Below are positions 1-6,193 of a DNA stretch of 6,193 bases, piece after piece; within the stretch, counting starts at the first letter, position 1, and the number at the start of each line of letters is the position of its first letter. The notes beneath the pieces were generated by a model that saw only the letters and a list, made by a program, of their open reading frames with translations, searched no databases and was not told the DNA's origin. A program made the translations under genes and the position numbers. Origin of the DNA: a virus (taxonomy: Duplodnaviria > Heunggongvirae > Uroviricota > Caudoviricetes); the IMG/VR virus record IMGVR_UViG_2778261502_000008. The stretch is one strand, 5' to 3'.

Positions 1-1572
1 GCTGACGTCATATTCCAGACAGCCACGGCGGATAACGTCTTTTGCCTTGAGCACCATTGCGGTTTTCATTTCCGGCGTGTAGCGGATATCGCGAGCGGCG
101 GGATAGAACGAGCGCACGAGCTGGAACACACCGACACCGAGGCCGGTGGCATCAATCCCGATGTATTCGACGTTGTATTTTTCGGTGAGTTTGCGGATGG
201 ATTCTGCCTGGGTGGCAAAGTCCATGCCTTTCCACTGGTGACGCTCAAGGATCCTGAATTTGCCACCGGCCACCACCGGCGGTGCCAGCACCACGCATCC
301 GGCGCTGTCGCCACGGTGTGACGGGTCGTAACCAATCCATACCGGGCGGGAGCCGAACGGATTTGCGGCAAACGGCGCATAGTCTTCCCATTCTTCCAGC
401 GTGTCGACCATACAGCGTTGCAGCTCCTCGAACGGGAACACCGACGCCTTGTCGTCAACAAATTCACACATGAACAGGTTTTTAAAATCATCGGCGCTGT
501 TTTCGCGTTTGAGCTGCTCAATGTCGAACAGCGTGCAGCCGCCTTTCAGGGCGTCCTCAATGGTGACAATCTGCCGCCACTGGCCGTCCGCACAGAGAAG
601 CCCCCCGGCAAGGGCGTTATGACTGACGTCGATTTCCACGCGTTCGGCGGCGCTGGCGCGTCCCCGGTTGAACAGTTCACCCGACCAGAACGGGTAGGCG
701 TCGTGCGCCAGCGTGGACGGGGTGGAGAAATAGGTCGAGCGCAGGTGGCTCTGTGAGGCCATACCTGATGCCACCTTACGCAGCACCTGAAAATTCGGGA
801 TCCAGAAAATCTCATCGACGTACAGGTCGCCGTTATGGCTCTGTGCGGTGTTGGAGTTGGTGCCGAGAAAAATCAGTTTTGCACCGTTATTGCCCAGGAC
901 AATCGGGTCACCGGTCAGGTCAACGTCAACCAGCCGGGCAAAGGCGATGATGTATTCACGGAACACATACGCCTGCGTTTTACTGGCCGACAGAAAAATC
1001 TGGTTATGACCGGTTTTCAGGGCGCGCAGCAGCGCCTCGCGGGAAAAATAAAACGTCGCGCCAATCTGGCGGGATTTCAGAATATCGCGGATGCGGTGCT
1101 CAAGCCCGGCGCGATACCAGTGCAACTGATATTCGAAAGACTGCTCAAAGAAAATCTGCTCCAGCTTTTCGATGGCCTCGTCACTGAAAAAATTCTTTTT
1201 CGGTTTGCGACGCCCGCCTTTGTTGCGGTTAGCGACGTTCGGATTAAGGTCTGCCTCGTTGCCGGTCTGACTGTAACGGTTTACCCGTGCCAGTCGTTCA
1301 ATCTGGCGTCCCAGCAGGTCAATTTCCTTGAAGTCACCGCCGGTTTTCTGCGGTTTGATGATGAGCTGAGTCAGCCGCGCTTCCAGACTCATTTCGACAC
1401 GGCTGATGGGGGCAACGCTGTCCCAGCCGTCGCGCTGTTTCCAGCTCTGCACCGTCGGGCGTTTCATCTGCAACATGGCGGCAATCTGCGGTACGGAAAA
1501 CCCCTGCCAGTACAGCAGCGCCGCCTGACGACGCGGGTCGTGTAAAAGAGTGGTGTCTGTGGTGATGGTCAT
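1..1572 (-). CDS. P: Phage terminase large (ATPase) subunit, P2 gpP-like; N-terminus at 1572, 3' end runs off the window start (partial, 524 codons visible)
   Basis: Hand translation of the minus strand from ATG (reverse complement of 1570-1572) gives an uninterrupted frame to position 1: MTITTDTTLLHDPRRQAALLYWQGFSVPQIAAMLQMKRPTVQSWKQRDGWDSVAPISRVEMSLEARLTQLIIKPQKTGGDFKEIDLLGRQIERLARVNRYSQTGNEADLNPNVANRNKGGRRKPKKNFFSDEAIEKLEQIFFEQSFEYQLHWYRAGLEHRIRDILKSRQIGATFYFSREALLRALKTGHNQIFLSASKTQAYVF... with a Walker-B-like hydrophobic-DE motif (LYVDEIFWI). Shine-Dalgarno GGCGAGG lies 5 nt upstream of the ATG on the minus strand. It is absent from the ORF track, presumably because no stop codon falls inside the window. 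The plus-strand ORFs 418..756 and 835..1545 are shadow frames of this gene. Assignment to gpP is from memory of the P2 family. Confidence 0.88.
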   Translation of the reverse strand, partial: MTITTDTTLLHDPRRQAALLYWQGFSVPQIAAMLQMKRPTVQSWKQRDGWDSVAPISRVEMSLEARLTQLIIKPQKTGGDFKEIDLLGRQIERLARVNRYSQTGNEADLNPNVANRNKGGRRKPKKNFFSDEAIEKLEQIFFEQSFEYQLHWYRAGLEHRIRDILKSRQIGATFYFSREALLRALKTGHNQIFLSASKTQAYVFREYIIAFARLVDVDLTGDPIVLGNNGAKLIFLGTNSNTAQSHNGDLYVDEIFWIPNFQVLRKVASGMASQSHLRSTYFSTPSTLAHDAYPFWSGELFNRGRASAAERVEIDVSHNALAGGLLCADGQWRQIVTIEDALKGGCTLFDIEQLKRENSADDFKNLFMCEFVDDKASVFPFEELQRCMVDTLEEWEDYAPFAANPFGSRPVWIGYDPSHRGDSAGCVVLAPPVVAGGKFRILERHQWKGMDFATQAESIRKLTEKYNVEYIGIDATGLGVGVFQLVRSFYPAARDIRYTPEMKTAMVLKAKDVIRRGCLEYDVS

Positions 1573-1581
1573 GAATACCTC

Positions 1582-1600
1582 GCCGTGATGAATACACGGC
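1582..1600. repeat. Short inverted repeat GCCGTG-N7-CACGGC inside the 34-bp gap between the divergent P and FI starts
   Basis: Read directly: 1582-1587 gccgtg, 7-nt spacer atgaata, 1595-1600 cacggc, which is the exact reverse complement. It sits at or beside the inferred deletion junction. Function unknown. Confidence 0.35.
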
Positions 1601-1606
1601 AAACCG

Positions 1607-2656
1607 GTGCTGATTACCAATGTGCAGAGTGCAATTGCAAAGGCCGGTAAAAAAGGCACGCTGGCGGCATCGTTGCAGGCCATCGCCGACCAGTCAAAAC
1701 CGGTCACCGTTGTCGTGCGCGTGGAAGACGGCACTGGTGATGACGAGGAAACGAAACTCGCGCAGACCGTTTCCAATATCATCGGCACCACCGACGAAAA
1801 CGGTCAGTACACCGGACTAAAAGCCCTGCTGGCGGCGGAGTCGGTAACCGGTGTTAAACCGCGTATTCTCGGTGTGCCGGGACTGGACACCAAAGAGGTG
1901 GCTGTTGCACTGGCATCAGTCTGTCAGAAGCTGCGCGCTTTCGGGTATATCAGCGCATGGGGCTGTAAAACCATTTCCGAGGTGAAAGCCTACCGCCAGA
2001 ATTTCAGCCAGCGTGAGCTGATGGTCATCTGGCCGGATTTCCTCGCATGGGATACGGTCACCAGTACCACCTCCACCGCGTATGCCACCGCCCGTGCGCT
2101 GGGTCTGCGCGCTAAAATCGACCAGGAGCAGGGCTGGCATAAAACGCTGTCCAACGTCGGGGTGAACGGTGTTACCGGCATCAGCGCATCTGTATTCTGG
2201 GATTTGCAGGAGTCCGGCACCGATGCTGACCTGCTGAACGAGGCAGGCGTCACAACGCTGATTCGCCGCGACGGTTTCCGCTTCTGGGGTAACCGTACCT
2301 GCTCTGATGACCCGCTGTTCCTCTTTGAAAACTACACCCGCACCGCGCAGGTGCTGGCCGACACGATGGCTGAGGCGCACATGTGGGCGGTGGACAAGCC
2401 CATCACCGCAACGCTGATTCGCGACATCGTTGACGGCATCAATGCCAAATTCCGTGAGCTGAAAACAAATGGCTATATCGTGGATGCGACCTGCTGGTTC
2501 AGCGAAGAATCCAACGATGCGGAAACCCTCAAGGCCGGAAAACTGTATATCGACTACGACTATACCCCGGTGCCTCCTCTTGAAAACCTGACCCTGCGCC
2601 AGCGTATTACCGATAAATACCTGGCAAATCTGGTCACCTCGGTTAACAGCAATTAA
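1607..2656 (+). CDS. FI: Contractile tail sheath protein, P2 gpFI-like, apparently N-terminally truncated (GTG start, no convincing RBS)
   Basis: 349-aa ORF beginning at GTG 1607, sequence (V/M)[41 protein letters not shown]...[11 protein letters not shown], which I recognise as tail sheath. An in-frame TGA at 1589-1591 sits 18 nt upstream, so the frame cannot extend further. P2 FI is about 396 aa as I recall, and this ORF begins at an internal position of that protein (around residue 45-50). There is no Shine-Dalgarno before 1607. It may be annotated as a CDS or as a pseudogene. Confidence 0.8.
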
Positions 2657-2668
2657 GGAGCCTGACCG

Positions 2669-3187
2669 ATGGCAATGCCGCGCAAACTCAAGTTAATGAA
2701 CGTCTTTCTGAACGGCTACAGCTATCAGGGCGTTGCAAAGTCCGTCACGCTGCCAAAACTGACCCGTAAGCTCGAAAACTATCGCGGTGCGGGGATGAAC
2801 GGCAGCGCACCGGTAGACCTCGGCCTTGATGACGATGCGCTGTCAATGGAGTGGTCGCTCGGTGGCTTCCCGGATTCGGTTATCTGGGAGCTTTACGCCG
2901 CAACCGGTGTGGATGCCGTGCCGATTCGTTTTGCAGGCTCTTACCAGCGCGACGATACCGGCGAAACGGTGGCCGTCGAAGTGGTCATGCGTGGACGTCA
3001 GAAAGAAATCGACACCGGCGAGGGTAAACAGGGAGAAGACACCGAGTCGAAAATCTCCGTGGTCTGCACCTATTTCCGGCTGACGATGGACGGCAAGGAG
3101 CTGGTCGAAATCGACACCATCAACATGATTGAGAAGGTGAACGGCGTCGACCGGCTGGAGCAACACCGCCGAAATATCGGCCTGTGA
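2669..3187 (+). CDS. FII: Tail tube protein, P2 gpFII-like (172 aa), apparently intact
   Basis: ATG at 2669 preceded by AGGAG-type RBS (ggag at 2657-2660) immediately after the FI stop (taa 2654-2656). Protein MAMPRKLKLMNVFLNGYSYQGVAKSVTLPKLTRKLENYRGAGMNGSAPVDLGLDDDALSMEWSLGG... matches my recollection of P2-family major tail tube. The sheath-then-tube order is canonical. Confidence 0.9.
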   Translation: MAMPRKLKLMNVFLNGYSYQGVAKSVTLPKLTRKLENYRGAGMNGSAPVDLGLDDDALSMEWSLGGFPDSVIWELYAATGVDAVPIRFAGSYQRDDTGETVAVEVVMRGRQKEIDTGEGKQGEDTESKISVVCTYFRLTMDGKELVEIDTINMIEKVNGVDRLEQHRRNIGL

Positions 3188-3194
3188 TTTTCAT

Positions 3195-3215
3195 CCGGTC
3201 AGCCTGGCTGACCGG
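3195..3215 (+). other. GC-rich stem-loop (8-bp stem, 5-nt loop) just downstream of the FII stop; no U-tract
   Basis: Read directly: ccggtcag (3195-3202), cctgg (3203-3207), ctgaccgg (3208-3215). It begins 8 nt after the FII stop codon (tga 3185-3187). The following sequence is ttaaccctg, not a T-run, so this is not a canonical intrinsic terminator. It could be an mRNA stability or attenuation element between the abundant tube gene and the downstream genes. Confidence 0.45.
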
Positions 3216-3243
3216 TTAACCCTGATTCAGAAGTGAGAAAACC

Positions 3244-3300
3244 ATGAACAAAGAAAATGTGATTACCCTGGACAAACACAAAAATCACTGCGCGAGCTGA
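3244..3300 (+). pseudogene. E: Remnant of tail assembly chaperone gene E (gpE-like): about 10 native codons, then out-of-frame sequence and a stop after 18 codons
   Basis: ATG at 3244 with upstream purine-rich RBS (aagtgagaaaacc). Translation is MNKENVITLDKHKNHCAS*. MNKENVITLD matches the gpE N-terminus as I recall it; the rest does not look like a chaperone, and the programmed-frameshift E/E' region is absent. Consistent with a deletion breakpoint near 3270-3280. Confidence 0.5.
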
Positions 3301-3353
3301 ACGGTCACGCATCCCGTATTGAGGGATTTCGCAAGACCAGCGCACAGCTCGCC

Positions 3354-4730
3354 GTGACTGGTCATGCACTTGAAAAGGCACGGCAGGAGGCCGAAGCCCT
3401 TGCCACACAGTTTAAAAACACTGAACGTCCGACCCGTGCTCAGGCGAAAGTGCTGGAATCCGCAAAGCGTGCGGCGGAGGACTTACAGGCGAAATATAAC
3501 CGCCTGACAGATTCCGTTAAACGCCAGCAGCGGGAACTGGCCGCTGTGGGAATTAATACCCGCAATCTTGCACATGATGAGCAGGGACTGAAAAACCGTA
3601 TCAGTGAAACCACCGCACAGCTTAACCGTCAGCGTGATGCGCTGGCGCGTGTCAGTGCGCAACAGGCAAAACTTAACGCAGTAAAACAGCGTTATCAGGC
3701 CGGAAAGGAACTGGCCGGAAATATGGCCTCGGTGGGCGCTGCCGGTGTGGGGATTGCGGCGGCGGGAACGATGGCCGGAGTTAAGCTGCTGATGCCCGGT
3801 TATGAGTTTGCGCAGAAAAACTCAGAATTGCAGGCCGTGCTCGGAGTGGCAAAAGACTCCGCCGAAATGACCGCACTACGCAAACAGGCGCGCCAGCTCG
3901 GCGACAATACCGCCGCCTCGGCGGATGATGCGGCCGGTGCACAGATAATCATCGCGAAAGCGGGTGGGGATGTTGATGCCATTCAGGCGGCAACGCCGGT
4001 CACGCTGAATATGGCGCTGGCGAACCGCCGCACGATGGAAGAAAACGCCGCCCTGCTGATGGGGATGAAATCCGCCTTTCAGCTTTCAAACGATAAGGTC
4101 GCTCATATCGGGGATGTTCTCTCCATGACGATGAACAAAACCGCCGCCGATTTTGACGGCATGAGCGATGCGCTGACCTATGCCGCACCTGTGGCAAAAA
4201 ATGCCGGTGTCAGCATTGAAGAAACCGCCGCAATGGTCGGGGCGCTGCATGATGCAAAAATCACAGGCTCAATGGCGGGGACGGGAAGCCGTGCCGTGTT
4301 AAGCCGCCTGCAGGCACCGACGGGAAAAGCATGGGATGCACTCAAAGAGCTTGGCGTGAAAACCTCAGACAGCAAGGGAAACACCCGGCCAATATTTACC
4401 ATTCTGAAAGAAATGCAGGCCAGTTTTGAGAAAAACCGGCTCGGTACTGCCCAGCAGGCTGAATACATGAAAACTATTTTCGGGGAGGAGGCCAGCTCAG
4501 CCGCCGCCGTGCTGATGACTGCCGCCTCAACCGGAAAGCTGGACAAACTGACCGCTGCGTTTAAAGCCTCAGACGGGAAGACCGCCGAGCTGGTAAATAT
4601 CATGCAGGACACCCGCGTTGATGAATCACTGGCCGCGCTTTATGGCGATATCGGTAAACAGGCGGAGTCGCTCATCGGTAAGGCTGGCAGTATGGCGACC
4701 AGATTCACGGGTATGACGGGGGCGGGATAA
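3354..4730 (+). CDS. T: Tail tape measure protein (gpT-like), truncated: lacks a credible start, is about half the expected length, and its C-terminal ~39 aa appear to derive from tail protein gpU (in-frame T'-'U fusion)
   Basis: The track ORF begins at GTG 3354, but the same frame is open back to a TGA at 3234-3236 with no ATG, which suggests a missing N-terminus. The body carries a typical tape-measure core: a Gly/Ala-rich hydrophobic segment (GNMASVGAAGVGIAAAGTMAGVKLL) and a helical Ala/Gln/Lys-rich region. It is 458 aa against roughly 815 aa for P2 gpT (from memory). The ORF ends ...ELVNIMQD | TRVDESLAALYGDIGKQAESLIGKAGSMATRFTGMTGAG*, and its stop overlaps the D start (ataATG) in the way the U/D junction normally does. 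Confidence 0.72.
   Translation: MTGHALEKARQEAEALATQFKNTERPTRAQAKVLESAKRAAEDLQAKYNRLTDSVKRQQRELAAVGINTRNLAHDEQGLKNRISETTAQLNRQRDALARVSAQQAKLNAVKQRYQAGKELAGNMASVGAAGVGIAAAGTMAGVKLLMPGYEFAQKNSELQAVLGVAKDSAEMTALRKQARQLGDNTAASADDAAGAQIIIAKAGGDVDAIQAATPVTLNMALANRRTMEENAALLMGMKSAFQLSNDKVAHIGDVLSMTMNKTAADFDGMSDALTYAAPVAKNAGVSIEETAAMVGALHDAKITGSMAGTGSRAVLSRLQAPTGKAWDALKELGVKTSDSKGNTRPIFTILKEMQASFEKNRLGTAQQAEYMKTIFGEEASSAAAVLMTAASTGKLDKLTAAFKASDGKTAELVNIMQDTRVDESLAALYGDIGKQAESLIGKAGSMATRFTGMTGAG
4611..4730 (+). pseudogene. U: Probable 3'-terminal remnant of tail gene U (gpU-like), fused in frame to the truncated tape measure ORF
   Basis: The last 39 codons of the 3354..4730 ORF (TRVDESLAALYGDIGKQAESLIGKAGSMATRFTGMTGAG) resemble the C-terminus of P2-family gpU as I recall it. 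No separate ~160-aa U ORF exists between T and D. The 4-nt stop/start overlap with D (taATG at 4728-4732) is the expected U-D coupling. Confidence 0.45.
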
Positions 4731-5893
4731 TGCTGGATACGCTGACATTTGATGCAGGCAGTACGCTGACGCCGGATTACATGCTGATGCTCGACAGCAG
4801 GGATATTACCGGCAATATCAGCGACCGTCTGATGAGTATGACCCTGACGGATAACCGGGGCTTTGAGGCTGACCAGCTTGATATTGAACTGAACGATGCC
4901 GACGGGCAGGTCGGGCTGCCGGTTCGTGGCGCTGTCCTGACGGTGTATATCGGCTGGAAAGGTTTTGCCCTGGTATGCAAAGGGAAATTTACCGTTGATG
5001 AGGTTGAACACCGGGGCGCACCGGATGTGGCCACCATCCGCGCCCGGAGTGCAGATTTTCGCGGGACGCTCAATTCCCGCCGGGAAGGCTCCTGGCATGA
5101 CACCACGCTCGGTGCGATTGTTGAGGCGATAGCCACCCGTAACAGGCTGGAAGCCAGTGTCGCTCCGTCACTGGCCGGAATTAAAATCCCGCACATCGAC
5201 CAGTCGCAGGAGTCTGATGCAAAATTCCTGACCCGCCTTGCTGAACGCAACGGCGGTGAGGTGTCGGTAAAAATGGGAAAACTGTTGTTTCTCAAAGCGG
5301 GGCAGGGGGTGACGTCCAGCGGTAAAAAAATCCCGCAGATTACCATCACCCGCAGCGACGGCGACCGTCATCATTTTGCGATTGCTGACCGTGGAGCCTA
5401 TACCGGCGTAACGGCGAAGTGGCTTCACACCAAAGACCCGAAGCCGCAAAAGCAGAAGGTAAAACTGAAACGCAAAAAGAAAGAAAAACACCTGCGCGCA
5501 CTGGAGCACCCGAAAGCGAAACCGGTCACGCAGAAGAAAGCGCCAAAAGTACCGGAAGCGCGCGAAGGTGAATACATGGCCGGTGAGGCTGACAACGTTT
5601 TTGCCCTGACCACGGTATATGCCACGAAAGCACAGGCCATGCGTGCCGCTCAGGCGAAGTGGGATAAACTGCAACGGGGCGTTGCGGAGTTCTCCATCAG
5701 CCTGGCTACCGGTCGTGCAGATATTTACACGGAAACGCCGGTCAAAGTGTCAGGCTTTAAGCGTGTCATAGACGAGCAGGACTGGACAATCACTAAGGTG
5801 ACACATTTTCTGAATAATAGCGGCTTCACGACGTCCTTGGAGCTTGAGGTCAGGCTTTCTGATGTGGAGTACGAAACAGAAGGTAATGAGTGA
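4730..5893 (+). CDS. D: Phage late control gene D protein (gpD-like baseplate hub, gp27/VgrG-like family), 387 aa, apparently intact
   Basis: ATG at 4730 overlapping the upstream stop. 387 aa, the length I recall for P2 gpD. Family-typical motifs are present: MLDTLTFDAG..., GFEADQLDIELNDADGQ, FTVDEVEHRGAPD, SWHDTTLGAIVEAIA, ESDAKFLTRLAE. Position immediately upstream of ogr is canonical. Confidence 0.9.
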   Translation: MLDTLTFDAGSTLTPDYMLMLDSRDITGNISDRLMSMTLTDNRGFEADQLDIELNDADGQVGLPVRGAVLTVYIGWKGFALVCKGKFTVDEVEHRGAPDVATIRARSADFRGTLNSRREGSWHDTTLGAIVEAIATRNRLEASVAPSLAGIKIPHIDQSQESDAKFLTRLAERNGGEVSVKMGKLLFLKAGQGVTSSGKKIPQITITRSDGDRHHFAIADRGAYTGVTAKWLHTKDPKPQKQKVKLKRKKKEKHLRALEHPKAKPVTQKKAPKVPEAREGEYMAGEADNVFALTTVYATKAQAMRAAQAKWDKLQRGVAEFSISLATGRADIYTETPVKVSGFKRVIDEQDWTITKVTHFLNNSGFTTSLELEVRLSDVEYETEGNE

Positions 5894-5911
5894 TGCGTTT
5901 TATTTATCTGT

Positions 5912-5940
5912 TTGTTTTATAAGGACAAATTAACTAAAAT
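5912..5940 (+). promoter_or_regulatory. Candidate sigma70 promoter for ogr: TTGTTT (-35), 17-bp spacer, TAAAAT (-10)
   Basis: Read directly: ttgttt at 5912-5917, 17-nt spacer 5918-5934, taaaat at 5935-5940, in the AT-rich D-ogr intergenic region. Predicted start near 5947-5949. A purine-rich SD (ggaagagg, 5959-5966) precedes ATG 5975. Confidence 0.5.
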
Positions 5941-5974
5941 GACACCATTAACAAAACCGGAAGAGGTGCTCGCG

Positions 5975-6193
5975 ATGTTTCATTGTCCTTTATGCCAGCA
6001 TGCCGCACATGCGCGTACAAGCCGCTATATCACTGACACGACAAAAGAGCGTTATCACCAGTGTCAGAACGTGAATTGCAGCGCCACGTTCATCACCTAT
6101 GAGTCGGTACAGAGATACATCGTGAAGCCGGGAGAAGTCCACGCCGTAAGGCCGCACCCGTTGCCGTCAGGGCAGCAAATTATGTGGATGTGA
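5975..6193 (+). CDS. ogr: Ogr-family zinc-finger late transcription activator (P2 Ogr / E. coli OgrK-like), 72 aa
   Basis: ATG at 5975 to TGA 6191-6193. Protein MFHCPLCQHAAHARTSRYITDTTKERYHQCQNVNCSATFITYESVQRYIVKPGEVHAVRPHPLPSGQQIMWM has the C-x2-C...C-x4-C zinc-finger arrangement and matches Ogr as I recall it. The track ORF from 5912 is a TTG-initiated upstream extension that overlaps the predicted promoter and is unlikely to be real. Confidence 0.9.
   Translation: MFHCPLCQHAAHARTSRYITDTTKERYHQCQNVNCSATFITYESVQRYIVKPGEVHAVRPHPLPSGQQIMWM

Follow-up and report, generated by a model that had tools for sequence, protein, structure and literature searches.

Does the survival of apparently intact late genes next to broken ones in a prophage remnant reflect selection for the survivors, or merely deletions too recent for the survivors to have changed? 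The question is raised by a stretch of 6,193 nucleotides (the window) with both kinds of gene. An initial annotation had read it as a cryptic prophage in decay, with P, FII, D and ogr intact and FI, E, T and U broken by three separate deletions. It had left recent deletion and retention under selection as alternatives.

Identity and location of the element

We found that the window corresponds to bases 3 to 6193+2 of contig NLUV01000023.1, from a short-read draft assembly of E. coli (GCA_002233275.1). The left end of the contig is inside gene P, 2 nt left of the window. On the right side, where the initial annotation had proposed a check of the flank, ogr is followed by 236 nt and then by the chromosomal genes fieF-pfkA-sbp-cdh-tpiA. 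In E. coli ATCC 8739 (CP043852.1) the same fieF-adjacent site holds a complete P2-like prophage, and across ATCC 8739, E423, E3 and GPEC484-624 the P2-like prophages at this site are complete or differently deleted. The element in the window is thus integrated at the site used by this group, with ogr beside the host junction as in the complete prophages.

The window has homology to the late genes P, FI, FII, E, T, U, D and ogr of P2 (Peduovirus, Peduoviridae), in four collinear blocks with 97-100% nucleotide identity, and the Pfam domains expected of P2-like late genes were found. The genes of the window, P / FI FII E T U D ogr, follow the same order as in the ATCC 8739 prophage and P2. From FI' (the truncated FI) to ogr, the nucleotide sequence matches that of the ATCC 8739 prophage at 100% identity and that of P2 at 97-98%. 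Unlike these two, the window has no head, lysis, baseplate or fibre genes and no late promoters, and it lacks parts of FI, E, T and U. Every gene from O to G is missing. No RNA family was identified when the window was scanned with Rfam, and scans for sigma-70 promoters and terminators gave only background levels. The features are as follows.

1 to 1572, minus strand: P (terminase large subunit), codons 1-524 of 590; translation open, last 67 codons past the end of the window and contig
1573 to 1602, minus strand: P leader, the sole remaining 30 nt of the P-O intergenic region; alignments to fiAA91-ss and to L006 stop at 1602
1603 to 2656, plus strand: FI' (tail sheath), codons 46-396; without the N-terminal 45 residues, start codon, ribosome-binding site and promoter
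2669 to 3187, plus strand: FII (tail tube), full length, 172 aa (ORF and Pfam)
3244 to 3300, plus strand: E' stub, 10 native codons of E and 8 out-of-frame codons, with a stop at 3298-3300
3276 to 4610, plus strand: T' (tape measure), codons 38-482 of 815 (Pfam PhageMin_Tail)
4611 to 4730, plus strand: 'U, codons 121-159 and stop, fused in frame to T' (alignment)
4730 to 5893, plus strand: D (baseplate hub, Phage_GPD), full length, 387 aa (ORF and Pfam)
5975 to 6193, plus strand: ogr (late-gene activator), full length, 72 aa; Ogr_Delta zinc finger, C-X2-C-X22-C-X4-C

Based on the site, the homology and the missing and truncated genes, we conclude that the window is very probably the right arm of a recently deleted, defective P2-like (Peduovirus) prophage at the fieF site of an E. 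coli isolate. The reading as a cryptic prophage in decay agrees with the fieF-pfkA-sbp flank and with the missing or broken virion-essential genes, and every gene was found in the state that had been assigned to it, with a reservation for P (below). The element is a case of ordinary prophage decay; it is neither a conserved nor a new system.

Three deletions with 2-nt microhomologies

We mapped the breakpoints by ungapped BLAST against P2 and against the complete prophage. There are three separate deletions, with breakpoints at 1601/1602, 3274/3275 and 4610/4611, and together they account for 15,262 bp missing in three blocks relative to the ATCC 8739 prophage (CP043852.1).

1601 to 1602 (no strand): Junction 1 (J1), microhomology AA; 13,387 bp deleted in comparison with the ATCC 8739 prophage
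3274 to 3275 (no strand): Junction 2 (J2), microhomology AA; 499 bp deleted (E codon 11 to T codon 37), leaving the join out of frame
4610 to 4611 (no strand): Junction 3 (J3), microhomology CA; 1,376 bp deleted (T codon 483 to U codon 120), leaving the join in frame

J1 joins a point 30 nt upstream of the P ATG to FI codon 46. It removes P_P/P_O, O, N, M, L, X, the holin and endolysin genes, lysABC, R and S, and also V, W, J, I, H, G, the invertase gene, P_F and FI codons 1-45. Each of the three junctions has a 2-nt overlap; by our calculation, the chance of at least 2 nt at all three of a set of random joins is about 0.4%.

State of the genes

Truncations of FI, E, T and U were placed by alignment at J1, J2 and J3. 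The mechanical ORF within FI' (1607-2656) begins with GTG, and the match of FI' to Pfam Gp18_domIII_N begins only at profile position 19. The region of the E/E' frameshift is lost from E, the gene for the tail assembly chaperone. The T' frame is open from 3237, and its earliest possible start is a GTG at 3354 that has no Shine-Dalgarno sequence. The ORFs of FI' and T'-'U should be annotated as pseudogenes.

The other genes have uninterrupted frames, full length for FII (172 aa), D (387 aa) and ogr (72 aa). FII has no amino-acid differences from P2, D does not differ from its counterpart in the ATCC 8739 prophage, and Ogr has no non-synonymous differences from P2. The region upstream of ogr, an 81-nt spacer between D and ogr, is present. 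RefSeq records of relatives name this gene ogrK. P had also been called intact; its frame is open for 524 codons, and the claim holds only that far, as the contig ends inside the gene. Pfam identified Terminase_5, Terminase_6N and Terminase_6C in P; the match to the last of these breaks off at profile position 112 of 155, where the contig ends. The P stretch is 99.25% identical to P of fiAA91-ss, with 12 synonymous and 0 non-synonymous differences, and in all P comparisons there were 0-1 non-synonymous changes among 12-30 differences.

Loss of the late promoters

In P2-like phages, P_P serves PQ, and P_F serves FI FII E E' T U D (PMC3931495). In the intact prophage we found an element, TGTGTCA-N7-GCCA-N-CCGGGA, upstream of O and upstream of FI, and derived its sequence from these two sites. 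Both copies are inside deletion 1; in L006, the late-promoter element at 6655 lies past the J1 breakpoint. No copy was found in the window with 3 mismatches allowed. The P leader that remains (1573-1602) is too short for the P_P promoter and its activator site. A strict consensus, TGT-N12-ACA, was dropped: it matches no site in the window, and in the intact prophage it also misses the known promoter regions.

Because both elements are inside deletion 1, the intact tail genes lack any promoter of their own, and "intact" as applied to P, FII, D and ogr describes the reading frame only. FII and D, having lost the operon promoter P_F, and P, having lost P_P, would be transcriptionally silent. Among the genes of the window, ogr alone plausibly retains expression signals of its own.

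These losses bear on whether the locus could belong to a working tail-derived machine, such as an R-type tailocin or a phage that remains viable after rearrangement. The domains of a sheath, a tube, a tape measure and a hub are indeed encoded. However, the sheath is without its 45 N-terminal residues and its start codon, the tape measure is without codons 1-37 and 483-815, E/E' and U are destroyed, and the late promoters are missing. Between P and FI there are no baseplate, spike, fibre or lysis genes; those for baseplate, fibre and lysis have been deleted, where an R-type tailocin would need them together with a complete sheath and tape measure. We consider a functional machine extremely improbable.

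The junctions in other genomes and assemblies

J1 and J3 were found in 0 of 5,426 complete E. coli genomes. J1 was also absent from GTDB representatives and JGI metagenome contigs, J2 had no match in IMG/VR, and J3 had none in GTDB representatives. When J2 was compared with complete genomes, only the intact arrangement, as two joined pieces, appeared among the matches listed, and J2 might still occur in some genome. The FI' and T'-'U products were found in one NCBI contig only. Deletion intermediates, which would have pointed to a stepwise and not a simultaneous origin, were not found in any of the genomes and collections searched. Two candidates were rejected. Logan contig L009 was considered as a J1 intermediate with intact E and T; its first 47 nt are not the sequence upstream of P, and it is a different phage, 98.7% identical. 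The 11-kb record of vB_EcoM-473R3 was considered as a small derivative and is a partial genome.

We recovered J2 and J3 at 100% identity in one 3,979-nt Logan de novo contig from SRR3957146; Logan contig L011 carries J3. The reproduction of J2 and J3 in this independent assembly argues against the possibility that at least one junction is an assembly artefact and the window a chimeric contig. That possibility draws on the short-read draft source, on a contig that stops inside P, on the NCBI assembly as the sole source of J1, and on a P block whose allele differs from that of the closest relative of the tail block. However, the 2-nt overlaps at J1-J3 are far below any assembler k-mer, the reading frame runs cleanly through the T'-'U join, and comparable real deletions occur in finished genomes. 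An artefact therefore seems very unlikely.

The difference between the P and tail blocks might instead indicate that J1 is an illegitimate join of two P2-like prophages, one contributing P and the other FI to ogr. The match to the ATCC 8739 prophage is perfect over the tail block (100% identity) and falls to 98.9% over the P block, a different allele (1.1% difference) with 18 mismatches spread evenly along it. No complete genome matches this P allele above 99.3%. The breaks in P and in the Logan contigs also suggest that P2-like sequence may be repeated at another place in this genome. However, P2-like phages are routinely mosaic, and a single phage with another P allele is simpler. A join between distant prophages would need a large chromosomal deletion or inversion, whereas P divergent from the late tail operon is the arrangement of one prophage that has lost its middle, as in AF44, E423, E3 and isolateD. 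We consider two parental prophages unlikely.

Recent deletion or selection

We found no substitutions in the tail block. All 4,593 nt from FI' to ogr agree with the intact ATCC 8739 prophage; the lone mismatch reported by BLAST is an over-extension of the alignment across J3. The adjacent host flank differs at 86 of 8,537 positions (1%). As the initial annotation had suggested, we calculated dN/dS, here against P2. The broken genes gave 0.05 (FI') and 0.07 (T'), and the full-length genes gave 0 (FII), 0.20 (D) and 0 (ogr); the broken fragments are as low as the intact genes. With zero substitutions, dN/dS since the deletions is not computable.

The evidence favors recent deletion over retention by selection, because there are no substitutions, dN/dS is equally low in broken and intact genes, the junctions were seen in no other genome searched, and the late promoters are lost. 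With zero substitutions, selection on the surviving genes may also be at work, but it is not needed as an explanation.

Could P, FII, D and ogr nevertheless have been kept as a domesticated module that benefits the host? All four frames are open, and other remnants keep part of the same set: D and ogr are retained in other E. coli remnants, for example in DSM 103246 at yegR/yegQ, ogrK is the last intact gene of the K-12 remnant PR-X, and the arm from FII/E to ogr has been kept after independent central deletions in at least 4 other lineages. However, with 0 substitutions since the split from the intact phage, nothing in the window has yet been tested by selection, and the broken fragments are as "conserved" as the intact genes. 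The P_F and P_P regions are deleted, and there is no known role for a tube and a hub without a sheath, baseplate and tape measure. The junctions were seen in this isolate alone, with no other strain found to share them. The recurrence of central deletions is itself partly a product of the search, in which P and FI were joined only when close together. We therefore regard domestication as quite unlikely and keep recent deletion as the explanation.

Comparison with other P2-like remnants

The initial annotation had pointed, correctly, to a small P2 remnant in E. coli K-12: MG1655 carries the 629-bp "cryptic prophage PR-X", which consists of ogrK and the yegZ pseudogene. Like the element in the window, PR-X is a remnant of the right end of a P2-type prophage, in which ogr is intact and the 3' part of D survives. 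Window positions 5681-6191 are 95.5% identical to PR-X over 511 nt, and the homology is confined to ogr and D 3' sequences. PR-X lies between trhP (yegQ)/cyaR and yegR, whereas the remnant in the window is at fieF and is much larger (at least 6.2 kb compared with 629 bp), with P, FII and D kept; it is not of the PR-X type. PR-X is common to a lineage and hence old, whereas the deletions in the window were found in this isolate only. In some strains the yegQ/yegR locus is larger and has an intact D.

A comparison of synteny showed that finished E. coli genomes carry independent central deletions of P2-like prophages:

AF44: deletion from O' to 'FI
E423: deletion from P' to 'FI
E3, DSM 103263 and GPEC484-624: deletion from N' to 'FI
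isolateD and relatives: deletion from M' to 'FII

Like the window, these four groups have lost the lysis, baseplate and fibre genes through a central deletion, which leaves Q-P on one side and the arm from the tail tube to ogr on the other. Each has a single large deletion that leaves E, T and U intact, and the breakpoints are all different; two extra small deletions set the window apart.

Prophage decay and domestication were reportedly described by Bobay, Touchon and Rocha in 2014, with vertically inherited remnants under measurable purifying selection. Like such defective prophages, the element in the window has been inactivated by deletion and its remaining frames are open. Unlike them, it is too young for any substitution.

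Discussion

What the analysis shows directly is where the genes and junctions lie, how closely the sequence matches its relatives, that the promoter elements are lost and that the searches found the junctions nowhere else. We propose that a complete phage, with a tail module identical to that of the ATCC 8739 prophage (CP043852.1), integrated recently and then probably lost 13.4 kb, 0.5 kb and 1.4 kb in three illegitimate deletion events mediated by microhomology. The order of these events and the mechanism, either replication slippage or end-joining at the 2-nt microhomologies, are inferred. The deletions have cost the element head assembly, the DNA-packaging nuclease M, lysis, the baseplate and the tail fibres, as well as the N-terminus of the sheath, the chaperone E/E', half of the tape measure and most of U. 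Such an element would be unable to form virions or tail-like particles or to lyse its cell. P, FII, D and ogr would look intact because there has been too little time for point mutations, and not because of selection.

Two further ideas, taken together, strike us as unlikely. The three deletions might all date from one short episode, for example an abortive induction that the cell survived, or damage by a self-targeting nuclease followed by microhomology end-joining. A single episode would fit because the deletions are clustered, each has a 2-nt microhomology, and there are no point substitutions. In a related reading, the FII/E-to-ogr arm, kept in at least 5 independent E. coli deletion derivatives, might owe its persistence to selection for Ogr or D during the elimination of the lysis cassette.

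Slettan et al. are said to have reported, in 1992, functional cryptic ogr genes in K-12 and B. If the ogr described here has residual activity, it might trans-activate late promoters when P2-like phages or P4-like satellites enter the cell.

Beyond annotation, the finding is of little importance. What the window offers is a clean, datable snapshot of the earliest stage of prophage inactivation, in which deletions at 2-nt microhomologies come before point mutations. Its lesson is that open reading frames in a prophage remnant are not proof of selection.

Gene content and source of the remnant

We found that the window consists of four blocks collinear with P2-like phages (ORF listing and BLAST), separated by junctions J1 (1601/1602), J2 (3274/3275) and J3 (4610/4611). 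The initial annotation had described three deletions, with P, FII, D and ogr intact and FI, E, T and U broken. BLAST mapping of the four blocks confirmed the deletions, and ORFs, BLAST and Pfam showed the gene list to be correct. The 524-codon terminase frame that it reported is indeed open.

Blocks of the window
1-1602, minus strand: block 1, the 5' 524 codons of P (terminase; open frame) and 30 nt of upstream region
1601-3275: block 2, FI codon 46 through FII to E codon 11
3274-4611: block 3, T codons 37-483, both end codons partial
4610-6193: block 4, U codons 121-159, then D and ogr

Block 1 is 99.25% identical to phage fiAA91-ss. Pfam domains in the window were terminase, sheath, tube, tape-measure, GPD hub and Ogr/Delta. 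At 172, 387 and 72 aa, respectively, FII, D and Ogr match their P2 counterparts in length, and the FII and Ogr proteins are identical to those of P2.

Located through exact matches to its two junction-specific products, the window corresponds to positions 3-6195 of contig NLUV01000023.1 (assembly GCA_002233275.1; 100% identity). To the right, ogr is followed by 236 nt, fieF, and then pfkA, sbp, cdh and tpiA. This flank is E. coli DNA, with a best match among complete genomes of 99.7-99.8% identity. The fieF-adjacent site is also occupied by P2-like prophages in ATCC 8739, E423, E3 and GPEC484-624.

Logan's de novo assembly of run SRR3957146 includes a 3,979-nt contig (L011) that matches window 1789-5767 at 100% identity and spans J2 and J3. 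k-mer-based mis-joining cannot yield 2-nt overlaps. Support for J1 comes from the NCBI assembly alone. L011 ends (window 5767) inside the stretch homologous to PR-X, a cryptic remnant in K-12 MG1655, and the left end of the NCBI contig falls within P. As a guess, both breaks would be compatible with extra P2-like sequence in the same genome, such as another prophage or another copy of ogr/D'.

Three deletions with short microhomologies

Deletions were measured against the complete P2-like prophage at fieF in ATCC 8739 (L006; CP043852.1). Deletions 1, 2 and 3 removed 13,387, 499 and 1,376 bp, respectively, and every junction has a 2-nt microhomology (AA at J1 and J2, CA at J3). Deletion 1 spared only 30 nt of the P-O promoter region. 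It took O, N, M, L, X, holin, endolysin, lysA/B/C, R, S, V, W, J and I, the fibre genes and their invertase, as well as the promoter region and first 45 codons of FI. The invertible tail-fibre segment and recombinase just upstream of FI (L006 17593-19806) are both inside this deletion. After deletion 2, only a 10-codon stub of E remains, followed by out-of-frame sequence up to a stop codon at 3298-3300. Deletion 3 is in frame, and the resulting T(38-482)::U(121-159) ORF terminates at the usual stop codon of U, which overlaps the start of D. Gene callers label this chimeric T'-'U ORF (window 3237-4730; 458 aa) a tape-measure protein; it has neither the native start codon nor an obvious ribosome-binding site, and translation could start no earlier than the GTG at 3354.

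No intermediate carrying a subset of the three deletions, which would indicate their order, was found in the genomes and collections searched. The clustering of the deletions, the uniform 2-nt microhomologies and the absence of substitutions would be compatible with one episode of damage and repair.

The allele in the P block is distinct: it shares 98.9% identity with the ATCC 8739 prophage, and its best match in the phage and complete-genome sets reaches 99.3%. J1 could be a join between two resident prophages. The simplest reading is instead mosaicism, a single mosaic parent phage accounting for the P allele.

Loss of promoters

In the intact prophage, the upstream regions of O and FI share the element TGTGTCA-N7-GCCA-N-CCGGGA. 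Both copies fall within deletion 1, and the window contains none, even at three mismatches. The operon PQ is transcribed from P_P, and the operon FI FII E E' T U D from P_F (PMC3931495). Because the elements of the P_P and P_F regions are deleted and the genes are arranged in these operons, P, FII and D are without promoters of their own. Only ogr retains its upstream spacer, and it is plausibly the sole active gene of the remnant. Judged from sequence, the remnant can function neither as a phage nor as a tailocin.

The deletions appear to be recent

The initial annotation interpreted the locus as a cryptic prophage and left recent deletion and retention under selection as explanations for the open frames. 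From FI' to ogr, the window and L006 have 0 differences in 4,593 nt, in contrast to 86 differing sites of 8,537 in the adjoining chromosome, so the phage is a recent horizontal acquisition. The deletions came after integration, because a phage carrying them would be unable to propagate. (The lone BLAST mismatch to L006 is not a substitution; the alignment was over-extended across J3.)

The dN/dS comparison suggested in the initial annotation was run against P2, and values for broken genes (FI' 0.05, T' 0.07) and intact genes (FII 0, D 0.20, ogr 0) were in the same range. P had 0-1 non-synonymous changes among 12-30 differences. This signal stems entirely from the past as a functional phage, with none from after the deletions.

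J1 and J3 were absent from all complete E. coli genomes (5,426/5,426), and there were no junction matches in GTDB representatives (J1, J3), IMG/VR (J2) or JGI metagenomes (J1). The fusion products (FI', T'-'U) were found in a single NCBI contig only. Four lines of evidence, identity, dN/dS, promoter loss and junctions unseen elsewhere, point to recent deletion, and lack of time is a sufficient explanation for the open frames. The cryptic-prophage interpretation is thus supported and can be sharpened: the locus is a P2-like prophage that became a deletion derivative very recently.

Other deleted P2-like prophages in E. coli

In eight complete genomes, differing central deletions brought P and the tail arm near each other; the search design was biased towards exactly this class, and the recurrence is no proof of a hotspot or of selection.

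Joins in complete genomes
O' to 'FI: AF44
P' to 'FI: E423
N' to 'FI: E3, DSM 103263 and GPEC484-624
M' to 'FII: isolateD and two relatives

These genomes show that P2 prophages are commonly inactivated by losing the lysis, baseplate and fibre block.

Related loci have other features. The deleted P2-like prophage of AF44 (L004; NZ_OZ547155.1) carries two reverse-transcriptase genes and a retron Ec48-family effector (749-4738) between A (replication) and Q (portal), a position that is a known defence hotspot in P2-like phages. In the complete relative L006, the A-Q hotspot (304-3356) holds a ParB-N-domain gene as well as a DNA cytosine methyltransferase. In E423 (L005), ISApl1 copies at 1227-2201 and 13959-14933 bracket the deleted prophage, one interrupting A and the other lying between ogr and fieF. 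In GPEC484-624, the tape-measure gene (L014 9008-11386) lacks 69 nt, in frame, relative to that of E3 (L012 9008-11455); the two remnants are otherwise near-identical. A Logan contig (L009; SRR29027550) has an FI' product of 349 aa identical to that of the window. At its start (1-53), the first 47 nt correspond to neither standard FI nor the sequence upstream of P and include an in-frame TAA, and a 36-mer from this contig had no match in IMG/VR. A variant or frameshift of FI, or a contig-end error, could account for this start.

The K-12 remnant of ogr and a D fragment mentioned in the initial annotation exists as the 629-bp PR-X (ogrK and yegZ). Window 5681-6191 matches it at 95.5%, but PR-X occupies a different locus. 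At the same yegR-yegQ locus, DSM 103246 (L007 3233-5592) has I', T', a still intact 387-aa D and ogrK, whereas K-12 has only ogrK and the D fragment. The DSM 103246 locus resembles what the K-12 remnant may have been at an earlier stage.

This kind of element is already well known, and this deletion derivative has been seen so far in one isolate only. The remnant is a young P2-like deletion derivative of an ordinary class.
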